Source: Escherichia coli
Lineage (GTDB): Bacteria; Pseudomonadota; Gammaproteobacteria; Enterobacterales; Enterobacteriaceae
Assembly (NCBI RefSeq): GCF_051903065.1
Contig: NZ_CP178441.1
Reading direction: 5' to 3' (one strand)
DNA length: 42,047 bases
Both the position numbers and the translations under genes were made by a program. Shown one piece after another: positions 1,246 through 41,327 of the stretch; within the stretch, counting starts at the first letter, position 1, and the number at the start of each line of letters is the position of its first letter. The notes below the pieces were generated by a model. It made no database searches, had not been told where the DNA came from, and saw only the letters and a list, made by a program, of their open reading frames with translations.

Positions 1246-1275
1246 TTGCAATTATAGGACAATATGTCCTATAAT
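1246..1275 (+). promoter_or_regulatory. Sigma70-like promoter TTGCAA-18-TATAAT overlapped by KorC-type operator TAGGACAATATGTCCTA (1255..1271)
   Basis: Hexamers and spacing read directly. The 17-bp perfect-arm palindrome covers the spacer and -10, as at RK2 kleA/klcA promoters. Confidence 0.6.
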
Positions 1276-1720: not shown

Positions 1721-1972
1721 ATGAGTATGGATCTATCTCATCTGGCCGAAATGACACCTTCTGATGAAGCACGATTTTTTACCGTTTTTGATAGACAACT
1801 TGGATATGATGCAGGTGAAGAAGCCCGTGCCAATCTTCTTAGTGGCGTACCTATTTATTACGCTGAACGAAATACACCAGAAGGGTGTGTTATAAAAGAA
1901 TATCCAGATGGCCGTAAGGAACTGGTGAGTTTCATGACTGGTACAGAAAAAGTAGTTGAGGTTAAGCTCTGA
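1721..1972 (+). CDS. hypothetical 83-aa protein, putative antitoxin partner of the downstream kinase
   Basis: Stop overlaps the start of the next gene (TGATG coupling). AT-rich leader upstream. Confidence 0.5.
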   Translation: MSMDLSHLAEMTPSDEARFFTVFDRQLGYDAGEEARANLLSGVPIYYAERNTPEGCVIKEYPDGRKELVSFMTGTEKVVEVKL

Positions 1973-2562
1973 TGCGTCCTCAACTCTGGGTTATTGCTGG
2001 GCCTAATGGTGCAGGAAAATCTACCCTAGTTAAGCGACATATCCTTGGGAAAATAGAGGTTGTTAACCCTGATGATATTGCGCGGGAACAAGGTATAAGC
2101 AATCGAAAGGCAGGAGAGCAGGCACTTTTTCTGCGCACGGAAAATATCAAAAATAGATGTACTTTCGCTGTAGAAACGACACTCACAGGAATGGGGGAGA
2201 TTAAGTTAATGCAGCTTGCTGCAACTGCAGGTTACAAAATTAATTTAATCTATGTGGGGGTGAAAGATGTAGGAATGTCAGTAGCTCGCGTTAACCAGCG
2301 TGTAAGCCTTGGTGGTCATAATGTGCCTGTTGATGATATTTTCAGACGATACGAGCGTTCTGTAACCAACCTACCTAAAGCTATGGCCGTGGCTGACCGG
2401 GTATGGGTATTTGATAACAGTTATAACAGACGGCGATTACTTTTCCGCACAGAACAAGATAAAACAAAGTTCATTTCTAATGATTTGCCTGATTGGTTTA
2501 AAAAAGTCGCTGGGACAGAGATTGAGCAGGCCAGAATGAAAAAGAAGAAATTAAGTCGTTAG
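1972..2562 (+). CDS. P-loop kinase of zeta-toxin/AAA_33 type (putative toxin)
   Basis: Walker A GPNGAGKST near the N-terminus, followed by a VVNPDD segment and an HNVP...RRYERS segment typical of zeta-like kinases. Translationally coupled to the upstream small ORF. Confidence 0.55.
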   Translation: MRPQLWVIAGPNGAGKSTLVKRHILGKIEVVNPDDIAREQGISNRKAGEQALFLRTENIKNRCTFAVETTLTGMGEIKLMQLAATAGYKINLIYVGVKDVGMSVARVNQRVSLGGHNVPVDDIFRRYERSVTNLPKAMAVADRVWVFDNSYNRRRLLFRTEQDKTKFISNDLPDWFKKVAGTEIEQARMKKKKLSR

Positions 2563-3875: not shown

Positions 3876-4888
3876 TGACTAAAAAAAATTCTTCCGGCCT
3901 TGGCCTTGATACCGTTGGTGATCTCTCCGACTTTCTTGATGCGTCTGCAGGTGCTGAGGGTAAACCACTGATGCTGGACGTTGATGCGATTGATCCCGAT
4001 CCTGAACAACCGCGTAAGCAGGACAACCCAGGGTTCTCAGAGGAATCCATTAAGGAGCTGGCTGATACCATTAAAGCGCGTGGTGTGAAAATGCCTGTCT
4101 CCGTTCGCGAGAATCCGGAGCAAGCGGGGCGCTATATTATTAACCATGGAGAACGTCGCTGGCGAGCCAGTAAAGTGGCCGGGAAGAAACAAATTCCCGC
4201 TTTTATCGATAATGACTATAGCGACGATGATCAGGTCATTGAGAACATCCAGCGTAATGACCTGACGGCGCGTGAAATTGCCGTACACATTGGCCGCAAA
4301 CTGGCTGAGGGGGTATCAAAATCTCAGATTGCTAAACGGCTTGGCAAGTCGCCAGCGTTCGTAACCCAACACGCAGCGTTGCTGGACCTGCCGGATTGTA
4401 TAGCAGATGCTTTTAATAAAGGTTCAATCCGTGATGTTACCGTAGTTAATGAGCTGGTAACGGCTTACAAGCAAGACCCGGAAGAAGTTCAAAAACTGCT
4501 TGAAGAGAACGAGGGTGAAGACATTACCCGTAGTGCGGTGAAAGTTTTCCGTGAGTTCCTGGACGAAAAAGAATCCAGCAAGCGTGATCCAGACACCATT
4601 GACGCCTTCAATGGCCGTACCGATTCGGAAGCTGCCGAAGATGATACGGACGGCCACGATGATAACGATGTGACCGATAAGGTCCGTAAGACGCCAGAAA
4701 AGGAAACCGATCCTGATAAATTCAAAAAGGCTATTGTTATCGTTGAGTACCTGGGGGAGCAGGGCCGCCTTATCCTGACCAAGCGCCCAAGTGAAGAAGG
4801 GCTTGCCTGGATTAAGTTTGATTCAACTGGTGTAGAAGAAGAGCTAAATCTCGAAAACGTGAAAATAATTTGCCTTATTGAAGGATAA
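3875..4888 (+). CDS. korB: KorB / ParB-family DNA-binding partition and global regulator protein
   Basis: ParB box HGERRWRAS and HTH segment SKSQIAKRLGKSPAFVTQH. Eleven cognate 13-bp OB palindromes are present on the replicon. Confidence 0.85.
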   Translation: MTKKNSSGLGLDTVGDLSDFLDASAGAEGKPLMLDVDAIDPDPEQPRKQDNPGFSEESIKELADTIKARGVKMPVSVRENPEQAGRYIINHGERRWRASKVAGKKQIPAFIDNDYSDDDQVIENIQRNDLTAREIAVHIGRKLAEGVSKSQIAKRLGKSPAFVTQHAALLDLPDCIADAFNKGSIRDVTVVNELVTAYKQDPEEVQKLLEENEGEDITRSAVKVFREFLDEKESSKRDPDTIDAFNGRTDSEAAEDDTDGHDDNDVTDKVRKTPEKETDPDKFKKAIVIVEYLGEQGRLILTKRPSEEGLAWIKFDSTGVEEELNLENVKIICLIEG

Positions 4889-4909
4889 AAGGTATCAATT
4901 TCCGCTCAG

Positions 4910-4937
4910 AATCCCGCAGTCGCGGGATTTTTTTTAT
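4910..4937 (+). terminator. rho-independent terminator after korB
   Basis: Stem ATCCCGC/GCGGGAT with a 4-nt loop, followed by a run of eight T. Confidence 0.7.
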
Positions 4938-4958
4938 TAATATTATTTATTGCATAAT

Positions 4959-4971
4959 TTTAGCCGCTAAA
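4959..4971. promoter_or_regulatory. KorB-type operator TTTAGCCGCTAAA
   Basis: Perfect OB consensus. A degenerate KorA-like half site TGTAGCTAAACA lies at 4981..4992. Confidence 0.6.
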
Positions 4972-5086
4972 ATGTATAGATGTAGCTAAACAAAATTTAA
5001 CCTGAGGGCTATGTAGTTCCGTCAGGGCAGAGAATTCATGGTTCCTGGCGGCTATTTCCTAAAAACGCATCATTACCGGTGATGTT

Positions 5087-5370
5087 ACTTATGAGTAAGG
5101 TGACGCAGGGAGAGTTAAGAACCATACTCAACATGCAAAACAACATTAGGAATGAGCGGCAAAAACACCAATATCTGTATCAGAGTACTGACATCCTTAT
5201 CAACCTGGCTGGGATGAGGGATTGAGCGTGACACAATAGCTCTTAACTTATCGTAGCTGGAAGAAAGCCCTATCTTGGTCCTTTCGACAAACAGCGCCTG
5301 AAAGAAGCCCACAAACGCATTTTTAACGGCATTTATCCATAGGGCCGGAGAATACCTGGATGATGGTTAA
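5087..5370 (+). pseudogene. possible frame-disrupted gene remnant (Fic-like N-terminal helix motif) in a 0.5-kb ORF-free region
   Basis: Short frames encode ...FDKQRLKEAHKRIFNGIYP(stop) and, one frame over, AGEY.... Deleting one base near 5340 would give IYPWAGEY, which resembles the Fic N-terminal helix. No intact ORF spans 4972..5468. Confidence 0.25.
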
Positions 5371-5468
5371 AGAGTAGTTGGGTAATCAGTTGCCGATTCA
5401 ACTTAAAAATAGCAGTTAGCCCTATCTCAATACAGACGGTTGATGATAACACAAGGAGTAACACCGAC

Positions 5469-5822
5469 ATGAGCAAACAGCGTGTTCTTGTCATGAACGG
5501 CCAGCGAGTGCTGCAAAGCGAAGAAGCTGGAAAATGGAAAAATGACAATGTTGATAGAGCTGGCAGCATAAAGCCAGGCATTTACCCGCTTTATCTGTCC
5601 AAGGGGCCGGATAAAGCCAGCTCTTATAATGGGCCGATTTTACACGCAGATAAGCAATCAGTATATCAGCAGGTAGGTAAGCAGATTTTCAAGCATGATC
5701 GCCAAAATTTCGATAAACTGCCAGAAGTAGGTACGGAAAAAAGTATTTCGTATGACCAGACTTCCGGTAAAGCTCAGGTAGCAGCAGCCACAGAGAAGCA
5801 GGGCCGGAAGTTCTCCAGATAG
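5469..5822 (+). CDS. hypothetical protein (kfr/upf-position)
   Basis: GGAG RBS before the ATG. Position corresponds to the kfr/upf54 block of IncP-1. Confidence 0.5.
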   Translation: MSKQRVLVMNGQRVLQSEEAGKWKNDNVDRAGSIKPGIYPLYLSKGPDKASSYNGPILHADKQSVYQQVGKQIFKHDRQNFDKLPEVGTEKSISYDQTSGKAQVAAATEKQGRKFSR

Positions 5823-5843
5823 CGAATAGCGTAGGAGTCCCGG

Positions 5844-6524
5844 ATGAAGCCAACTACCCCATTTAAAAATCCCGGCGCGGTCCGGGATACCTCCTCCCCT
5901 CATCAGCAGCTTGATATTACACCTGATCTTCTCGCAGAGTCGGAAGCCGTAAATATCCAGGAACAGGTACAGCAACTGCATGACGAACAGCAGCAGTTGA
6001 TCAATGACCCTTCCCATTTGCAGGATTCGCAAACTGACGCCGGTAACATTGAGCAGGAATATAAGGATGCGGTAGAGGCGGCAGTAGCGGATAAAGAAAC
6101 GCAGGCAGAAAACCTTGAAAACCGGCTGGAATCGCTGATAGACAAGCAGGAGGCGGTTCTGCAGCAGATGATGAGTCGTCAGCCTGGGTTTTTGGCTCTG
6201 CCCGGCCAGAAGGCAAAATGGAAGTCACAGGTGCAACAACAACAGTCATTGCTGAGTCGCCTGCAGAACCGGCTGGAAACTGTCAAAGAGATTCATGACG
6301 GGATGGGGTTACATGGCCCGCGTATACACGAACTTGCGACGGCCAAAGTGCGGCATGATAAACCAGAGCTTGCCGAAGGATGGGATGAAATGCGGGCTGC
6401 ACAGCGAGCGCATGAGAATCTCATGCGGAAGCAGGCGAAAGAACAGAAAGAAAAGCTACAAAGAGAGCAGGCTCCATCACTAAGTAAAGGGAATGGTCTG
6501 AGCCTTACACGAACAATAACTTGA
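5844..6524 (+). CDS. Q/E-rich coiled-coil protein (Kfr-like position)
   Basis: AGGAG RBS. Highly charged, Gln/Glu-rich sequence consistent with long alpha-helical coiled coil, in the position where IncP-1 plasmids carry kfr genes. Confidence 0.5.
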   Translation: MKPTTPFKNPGAVRDTSSPHQQLDITPDLLAESEAVNIQEQVQQLHDEQQQLINDPSHLQDSQTDAGNIEQEYKDAVEAAVADKETQAENLENRLESLIDKQEAVLQQMMSRQPGFLALPGQKAKWKSQVQQQQSLLSRLQNRLETVKEIHDGMGLHGPRIHELATAKVRHDKPELAEGWDEMRAAQRAHENLMRKQAKEQKEKLQREQAPSLSKGNGLSLTRTIT

Positions 6525-23481: not shown

Positions 23482-23524
23482 TAGGACATTATGTCCTGCA
23501 CCTATGATAGGACATTTTGTCCTA
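23482..23524. promoter_or_regulatory. two KorC-type operators (TAGGACATTATGTCCTG at 23482..23498; TAGGACATTTTGTCCTA at 23508..23524) in a divergent promoter region
   Basis: Same 17-bp palindrome family as at 1255..1271 and 41307..41323. Confidence 0.6.
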
Positions 23525-41298: not shown

Positions 41299-41327
41299 TT
41301 GAACAATAGGACAAAATGTCCTATTAT
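41299..41327 (+). promoter_or_regulatory. klcA promoter TTGAAC-17-TATTAT overlapped by KorC-type operator TAGGACAAAATGTCCTA (41307..41323)
   Basis: Hexamers plus a perfect-arm 17-bp palindrome. Same geometry as the promoter at 1246..1275. Confidence 0.6.

Follow-up and report, generated by a model that had tools for sequence, protein, structure and literature searches.

The 42,047-nt stretch of Escherichia coli DNA considered here (contig NZ_CP178441.1 of RefSeq assembly GCF_051903065.1; the whole of it is meant by the window) is close to a complete 41-kb IncP-1-like conjugative plasmid, and in its control region two small adjacent genes probably make up a type II toxin-antitoxin addiction module. 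The first, at 1721-1972 on the + strand, encodes an acidic protein of 83 amino acids (pI 4.6) predicted to be the antitoxin; the second, at 1972-2562 on the same strand, encodes a basic kinase of 196 amino acids (pI 10.2) predicted to be the toxin. Judged from their sequences, the toxin most likely belongs to a known, poorly understood zeta-like branch of kinases and the antitoxin to a family not described before. The kinase itself is not new: it is named "zeta toxin family protein" in RefSeq ("predicted ABC-type ATPase" is the JGI name of its relatives), and its branch has been validated as toxin in mycobacteria.

The two open reading frames (ORFs) both start with ATG and overlap by a single base in the sequence TGATG (...AAG CTC TGA TGC GT...), the A at 1972 ending the TGA stop codon of the first and opening the start codon of the second. 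Shine-Dalgarno-like sequences precede both, GAGGG at 1710-1714, 6 nt 5' of the first ATG, and GAGG at 1958-1961, 10 nt 5' of the second. A pattern of one acidic and one basic product is typical of toxin-antitoxin pairs, and the generic type II arrangement of two small, co-oriented, overlapping genes of this kind that co-occur across lineages is what is found here. An earlier reading of the window made from its letters alone (the sequence-only reading) had noted the overlapping stop and start of the 83-aa and 196-aa ORFs, and its claim of toxin-antitoxin architecture holds up both in this coupled layout and in the conservation of the pairing. When the contigs encoding five kinase relatives of 43-60% identity were looked up (Photorhabdus, a plasmid-like contig of Burkholderia multivorans, Regiella, Tistrella and Achromobacter), all five had a small-protein homologue directly upstream; in four it overlaps the kinase gene by 4 bases (ATGA), and in the fifth the choice of start codon decides between an 11-nt gap and a 4-base overlap. 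Among 80 genome loci fetched with the kinase, a hidden Markov model (HMM) of the small family detected it upstream of the eight kinases most similar to that of the window, which have 37-60% identity, and more weakly in two more distant loci. Across the five contigs and these eight loci the overlap is nearly always the 4-base ATGA. Small homologues also stand upstream of kinases in Sphingomonas, Cupriavidus and Azospirillum, and on Zymomonas plasmids a small unannotated gene occupies that position. Sampled in reverse, three of five representatives of the small family have a kinase gene after them, which they overlap by 4 bases, and two are solo. Related loci have other toxin-antitoxin genes as neighbours (PaaA2, HigB, Doc, MazEF and HigA), and kinase relatives occur on 673 of 72,556 plasmid records, including those of Acinetobacter, Lactiplantibacillus, Agrobacterium and Enterococcus. 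Because the kinase has at least 499 homologues, the small protein is represented by 297 clusters and their adjacency is conserved, the two are not a chance pair of ORFs. In Photorhabdus caribbeanensis the intact pair is preceded at a short distance by another small-protein gene and then a fragment of a kinase gene (616-954 and 992-1141 of locus L011), an arrangement that points to a duplication with later decay.

Kinases of this short zeta-like branch have been found to be toxic, and to be rescued by the gene upstream, in three independent studies (PMC6362051, PMC6504116, PMC5728571). Rv0366c of Mycobacterium tuberculosis (197 aa) has a bacteriostatic effect that the ParD_like protein encoded upstream, Rv0367c, relieves; Tandon et al. 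2019 and the authors of TASmania reported this independently of each other (PMC6362051, PMC6504116). In E. coli, a homologue of 195 aa from Mycobacterium sp. MHSD3 halts growth and reduces colony-forming units, with rescue by its 119-aa ParD_like partner (PMC5728571). The motifs given for Rv0366c are 9-GPNGAGKS-16, N34, D36, E75, R116 and H122, with no GTxR motif for binding UDP-N-acetylglucosamine (UNAG), and its authors aligned N34/D36 to D67 of zeta and D66 of PezT, the catalytic aspartate that deprotonates the substrate hydroxyl. At 196 aa the window kinase has the size of this branch (~195-200 aa) and shares with the mycobacterial kinases (~195-197 aa) an identical GPNGAGKS P-loop, the N-x-D, the glutamate and the R-x5-H lid, its G10-S17, N32, D34, E68, R110 and H116 lining up with the motifs of Rv0366c. 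In the M. tuberculosis pair Rv0367c-Rv0366c, known as PezAT(Mtb), as in the window pair, GTxR is absent and the antitoxin gene comes first and the toxin gene second. These matching motifs, together with the sharing of partners described below, lead us to place the window kinase in the same branch as Rv0366c. The two pairs differ in their antitoxins, that of PezAT(Mtb) being ParD_like whereas the 83-aa partner has no ParD_like or ribbon-helix-helix (RHH) domain and corresponds to the C-terminal module of some ParD_like fusions; they differ also in that the window pair lies on a plasmid of Enterobacteriaceae, as part of the Kor regulon. A 2023 review of PezAT states that the target of the short branch is not known, and literature searches on COG4185 and on both RefSeq protein accessions returned no match.

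The active site of the window kinase is well preserved. In an alignment of 39 homologues at 40-89% identity the invariant positions are G10, N12, G13, G15 and K16 of the P-loop, N32, D34, E68 and T70, together with R106, R110, G114, G115, H116, R126, D148 and N149, and since all of them are present in the window kinase there is no sign of a dead enzyme. The Walker A P-loop (GxxGxGK[ST]) is found as GPNGAGKS at residues 10-17, within the GPNGAGKST (10-18) that the sequence-only reading had pointed out, and the candidate catalytic aspartate lies in a VNPDD motif whose invariant N32 and D34 match N34/D36 of Rv0366c by position; the residues we take as key are Walker A G10-S17, N32, D34, E68, T70, R106, R110 and H116. 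The fold is that of a zeta-type phosphotransferase, similar to zeta and PezT, and polynucleotide kinases match it about as well as the zeta toxins do. Searches of Pfam gave two partial, weak matches of equal score, Zeta_toxin (PF06414; independent E-value 7.4e-6, 26 bits, residues 54-150 against model positions 87-188) and AAA_33 (9e-6, residues 5-97). By its sequence, then, the kinase belongs to a zeta/PNK-like (zeta/polynucleotide kinase-like) superfamily, and the fold does not reveal which substrate is phosphorylated.

That the kinase is a canonical zeta toxin, phosphorylating the 3'-OH of UNAG and so blocking peptidoglycan synthesis and causing lysis as in epsilon/zeta and PezAT, is unlikely. 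The Pfam match and the RefSeq name speak for it, as do the zeta/PezT-like fold and the conserved Walker A motif and catalytic Asp position. Against this stands the loss of the UNAG-binding GTxR (in zeta G117-T121, within E116-G-T-x-R-T), which the window kinase replaces with E68-T-T-L-T-G, without the equivalent arginine; the replacement, E-T-T-L-(T/S)-G, is invariant in the family, and the motif is lost in Rv0366c as well. The Arg-x3-Arg spacing of the lid is unlike that of zeta (R158...R171), and the window kinase is ~75 residues shorter than zeta and PezT. Sequence searches of the PDB with the kinase alone or with the family profile returned no zeta, PezT or AvrRxo1 chain, the matches being confined to P-loops except for one extended match of the family profile, a weak one to Pnkp1 (E 0.012). 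Other substrates are already used within the zeta superfamily, where AvrRxo1 (AvrRxo1-Arc1 of Xanthomonas) acts on NAD/NAAD and ng_zeta1 (ng_epsilon1/ng_zeta1) on several UDP-sugars at the 4'-OH; both of these have non-epsilon partners unrelated to the 83-aa family and are much larger (330-400 aa), and ng_epsilon1/ng_zeta1 also lies on an IncP-1-type conjugative plasmid, that of the gonococcus, but in a cargo region, not the kle/kor control region. Because the UNAG motif is absent and zeta is no closer than the polynucleotide kinases, UDP-GlcNAc kinase activity should not be assumed. The sequence-only description of the protein as zeta-like is thus retained in so far as the RefSeq name and the toxic branch are concerned, and qualified in that polynucleotide kinases are as close to the kinase as zeta is and the UNAG-binding motif is missing from it.

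The resemblance to polynucleotide kinases raises a different alternative, in which the kinase would do no harm and would serve in housekeeping or repair, for instance by phosphorylating nucleotides, NAD or the 5'-OH of polynucleotides, with the small protein as its adaptor, chaperone or substrate. The profile match to Pnkp1, the very basic pI of 10.2, the frequent occurrence of the small protein without the kinase and the presence of NAD-dependent DNA ligase genes next to the pair in two unrelated contexts would all fit such an enzyme, and the kinase domains of the polynucleotide kinases (Clostridium thermocellum Pnkp, Pnkp1 and T4 Pnk, the AAA_33 group) are similar in size to the window kinase. 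The R-x3-R lid and the E/D-T-x-L motif of the window kinase also resemble what we take to be the motifs of polynucleotide kinases. We nevertheless consider this alternative very unlikely: kinases of the branch were toxic and rescued in all three studies mentioned above, fusions join the small domain to antitoxin-type DNA-binding domains of four different kinds, and the pair is patchy in distribution, mobile and situated within toxin-antitoxin islands. Unlike the polynucleotide kinases, moreover, the window kinase stands in a two-gene, toxin-antitoxin-like module, with no phosphatase or ligase domain of its own or beside it in the window.

The small protein belongs to a widespread family without a description in the databases. 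Neither it nor 64 diverse members of its family match Pfam, and the only named family matched by the 83-aa protein is phrog_21003, of unknown function; despite that PHROG match, a tblastn search with the small protein against 50,697 phage records gave nothing. An exhaustive profile search gathered the 297 cluster representatives mentioned above at E <= 1e-3, mostly of 70-95 aa, whose consensus is variable and helical in its N-terminal half and conserved in the C-terminal one, G-x-P-I-Y-Y-x-E-x-D-T-P-x-G-x-V-I-K-E-Y-P-D-G-R-x-E-L-V. The predicted alpha-alpha-beta fold of the 83-aa protein has no structural match in the PDB and is unlike the three-helix bundle of epsilon and of PezA (S. pneumoniae PezAT); we found in the protein no match to the epsilon profile (PF08998) or to the PezA C-terminal part, no three-helix bundle of the kind that occludes the ATP site, no N-terminal RHH domain of the ParD_like type (PF11903) and no other DNA-binding domain such as antitoxins generally carry. 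The suggestion that the partner does not resemble epsilon and may be a new antitoxin type is upheld by these comparisons, as far as sequence and predicted fold can tell. The only sequence match of the 83-aa protein in the PDB, the G-box beta-hairpin of CPAP/Tcp10, we regard as a resemblance between repeat-like motifs, not homology. Two family members, P0136 (163 aa) and P0146 (129 aa), contain two copies of the small domain in tandem.

It is the longer members of the family that indicate what the small domain does. Type II antitoxins typically consist of a DNA-binding module and a toxin-binding module. In P0197 and P0200 the small domain is preceded by a ParD_like domain, in P0214 by MqsA_antitoxin, in P0237 by DUF433 and in P0231 by a HigA-type "antidote" domain, the antitoxin-type domain standing N-terminal in each, and the gene for P0197 lies directly upstream of a Zeta_toxin/AAA_33 gene. 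Because these fusions join the small domain to antitoxin domains, the small domain would be the toxin-binding module and the 83-aa protein that module alone, a predicted stand-alone kinase-neutralising domain. Kinases below ~40% identity have other partners upstream, and in 18 of 30 upstream partners of the more distant kinases the N-terminal domain is ParD_like, the family of Rv0367c. The end of the proteins in one ParD_like subclass, P-x-P-H-Y-E...P-G-L-L-V-R-I-x-x-D-G-x-R-T, is similar to the conserved half of the small protein; in profile-profile comparison the small family gave a borderline match to the class-b ParD_like partners (probability 53%, E 1.4e-4, 33 columns) and none to class a. 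Since that match is borderline at best, the link to ParD_like rests on the fusion proteins. Other partner types also occur upstream of distant kinase relatives. One is an unannotated helical protein of ~60 aa with the motif E-P-T-D-E-E-L-x-x-V-M and no Pfam match, whose gene usually overlaps or abuts the kinase start (loci L019, L034, L052, L075 and L085). In the cyanobacterial loci L032 (1116-2486) and L036 (488-1621), and possibly also in L050 and L074, a gene overlaps the kinase start by 4 bases; those of L032 and L036 end in ...KQGMMQELLTGRTRLV. This ending looks like that of the specificity subunit in type I restriction-modification, and may hint that some distant relatives lie in defence islands.

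Modelling is consistent with direct binding between the two proteins. AlphaFold2 was given a fused chain of the small protein, a (GGGGS)6 linker and the kinase (309 residues, of which 30 are disordered linker), with an alignment in which the query was joined by 10 rows of paired homologues and by unpaired rows holding a kinase or a partner alone. The model reached a mean predicted local distance difference test (pLDDT) value of 91.3 and a predicted template modelling (pTM) score of 0.89, and the pLDDT of the small protein rose from 77 alone to ~95 in the fusion, where it gained a fourth strand. As the kinase alone makes up 196 of the 309 residues, a pTM of ~0.9 requires that both proteins be placed confidently in one frame, and the pair is confidently predicted by the model to form a complex.

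In the mechanism that we propose, translation of the two genes from one mRNA would be coupled, with the 83-aa protein made first; this protein would bind the kinase one-to-one and hold it inactive. Upon loss of the plasmid the antitoxin would presumably be degraded faster than the toxin, and the free 196-aa ATP-dependent kinase would then phosphorylate an essential cellular molecule, probably not UDP-GlcNAc, so that growth of the daughter cell would be arrested. In this way the module would help a low-cargo conjugative plasmid to persist. The analysis shows the structure of the genes, the families to which they belong, their conserved pairing, the domain fusions, the operators and a confidently predicted complex; that the kinase of this pair is toxic and is neutralised by its partner, that the antitoxin is labile, that the genes form an operon and that they stabilise the plasmid is what we infer. 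Kinases of the short zeta-like branch are common and proven toxic in mycobacteria, and to our knowledge no structure of any member of the family has been solved; the pair offers an E. coli-native, two-gene and easily manipulated example whose antitoxin appears to be a bare neutralising domain, and hence a convenient start for finding the substrate and for the structure of a toxin-antitoxin complex.

Transcription of the pair seems to be tied to the control circuit of the plasmid. The gene order is a korC-like ORF (964-1224), kleE (1322-1645, + strand), the small ORF, the kinase, a terminator, the korA promoter, korA, incC and korB. A probable operon promoter upstream of kleE, TTGCAA-18-TATAAT at 1246-1275 on the + strand, scored 10/12 in a promoter scan; a KorB operator TTTAGCTGCTAAA at 1232-1244 abuts its -35 element and is one of 12 matches in the window to TTTAGCNGCTAAA, against 0.19 expected by chance. 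Inside the promoter spacer lies the palindrome TAGGACAATATGTCCTA (1255-1271), a likely KorC-type operator. Sites of this form, TAGGACA-N3-TGTCCTA, number four in the window (1255-1271, 23482-23498, 23508-23524 and 41307-41323) against 0.02 expected, and they are probably the operators of the KorC-like repressor encoded at 964-1224. A terminator scan found no terminator-like site on the + strand between kleE, which is the first gene of the probable operon, and the small ORF; a strong intrinsic terminator at 2579-2607 on the + strand, seen in the scan (at 2579-2599) and in the sequence as a 9-bp stem followed by a run of T, ends the probable operon. A 9/12 consensus match between kleE and the small ORF may be a weak internal promoter; we set it aside as a candidate. 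We infer from these elements a kleE/antitoxin/toxin operon under global Kor control, whose promoter at 1246-1275 would be active and subject to repression. Because the antitoxin has no DNA-binding part, the pair would probably not be autoregulated, and its transcription would be set at the kleE promoter by the global repressors KorB and KorC. In this the pair appears to be placed under global repressors as epsilon/zeta is under omega: in the omega-epsilon-zeta system of pSM19035, which has a role in plasmid stability, the antitoxin epsilon, like the 83-aa protein, has no DNA-binding domain and the repressor is separate, omega there and probably KorB/KorC here.

The sequence-only reading had put the pair where RK2 carries kle genes, immediately upstream of the korA promoter, and that placement agrees with the flanks. 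Upstream is kleE, whose product is called "KleE stable inheritance protein" in the annotation of the identical plasmid pCFSA664-2, and downstream, outside the pair and bounding the slot, is the korA promoter region (2661-2706, + strand), with a KorB operator at 2661-2673, promoter-like hexamers at 2678-2706 and a KorA operator GTTTAGCTAAAC at 2694-2705. The position is that of the kleF/klaC slot of IncP-1 central control regions, and probably belongs to the same KorB/KorC-controlled operon; the kle proteins have no homology to the pair, position being all that they have in common, and the pair is replacement cargo. In sister IncP plasmids (47-60 kb, ~89% identity) the pair is missing from the kleE-korA slot and an unrelated gene of 213 aa, annotated "klaC", stands there instead (NZ_KX580713.1, 1881-2522), and since the same slot holds a different gene there, the pair is an exchangeable accessory module; by this comparison of gene content the slot is a hot spot for accessory-gene exchange. 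A 1.9-kb stretch spanning the pair is 100% identical to the Salmonella plasmid pCFSA664-2 and is found at 100% in ~28 near-identical plasmids of E. coli, Salmonella, Klebsiella and Shigella. The relaxase is of the MOBP type and the transfer system of the MPF_T type. No second toxin-antitoxin system is annotated on the plasmid and, in the annotation of pCFSA664-2, no resistance genes; it is a backbone-only, low-cargo conjugative element. If our reading is right, the pair is the only addiction system on a 41-kb conjugative backbone widespread in the four genera just named.

Several observations weigh against reading the pair as an addiction module. The toxicity and rescue data come from kinases with partners of other families, and the homology to Rv0366c is drawn from published motif positions and from partners shared by intermediate relatives. 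The complex was modelled through an artificial linker, with only 10 paired rows beside the query and no control model, and the promoter and operon were assigned from consensus scans alone. Solo homologues of the small protein, with no kinase nearby, occur on a 2.7-kb plasmid, on 7-9-kb plasmids and in two of five sampled contigs. The smallest of these plasmids is pGOX5 of Gluconobacter (NC_006676.1), which otherwise carries only repL and mazEF and has the homologue at 919-1164 on the - strand; others lie at 1240-1593 of NZ_CP063520.1, 1501-1758 of locus L096 and 1501-1749 of locus L097, and those on the 7-9-kb plasmids of E. coli, Citrobacter and Klebsiella adjoin higA. Such copies may be orphan antitoxins or anti-addiction genes, or may reflect a second function of the domain, and a function independent of the kinase fits them as well. 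Finally, scans of both proteins with PADLOC and NCBIfam gave matches at the level of the P-loop and no named family or defence system.

The PADLOC result bears also on the possibility that the pair is selected not for post-segregational killing but for abortive infection, for defence against phage or for keeping out competing plasmids, the biochemistry being unchanged and the trigger and benefit different. Many toxin-antitoxin modules act against phage, the small family has its PHROG entry phrog_21003, the restriction-like genes of L032 and L036 precede some distant kinases, and the solo antitoxin-like copies on tiny plasmids could be anti-addiction genes. We judge the defence role quite unlikely, as PADLOC matches nothing beyond the P-loop, the small protein has no match in the phage records searched, and a maintenance role is favoured by the place of the pair among stability and control genes, on a plasmid with no other addiction system.

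A more far-reaching version of the addiction-module reading, which we hold only tentatively and think doubtful as a whole, would join two proposals. The 83-aa protein would be an unrecognised, widespread kinase-neutralising antitoxin domain, which may work alone or joined to interchangeable DNA-binding modules of ParD_like, MqsA, DUF433 or HigA type, and the kinase would be a toxin with a new target, such that the hydroxyl of an RNA or tRNA, or NAD, may be phosphorylated instead of a cell-wall precursor. RNA/tRNA or NAD as substrate is compatible with the likeness to polynucleotide kinases, the very basic charge and the absence of a UNAG site. Were both true, the solo small genes on tiny plasmids would be anti-addiction genes directed against such kinases. 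If the 83-aa family is an antitoxin domain, annotation pipelines could name several hundred "hypothetical proteins", and the orphan copies on small plasmids could be flagged as possible anti-addiction genes.

Some minor observations concern the plasmid and the surroundings of the pair. The plasmid pSTEC639_3, in which the annotation of the kinase seemed to be missing, was considered as an example without the kinase and discarded as uninformative, being poorly annotated and probably an error-rich assembly. Among the transfer genes, following the annotation of pCFSA664-2, are genes for a topoisomerase III, for a 1,272-aa protein with a zincin-like metallopeptidase domain and for a member of the Hha/YmoA family. 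The NAD-dependent DNA ligase genes mentioned above lie immediately downstream of the pair, at 4118-5860 of locus L002, 4819-5589 of L011 and 2406-3249 of L100. The adjacency is confined to two lineages, Photorhabdus and an unrelated metagenomic contig, and is probably a coincidence of insertion sites; it is worth recording given the polynucleotide-kinase likeness of the kinase and the NAD-directed activity of its relative AvrRxo1.

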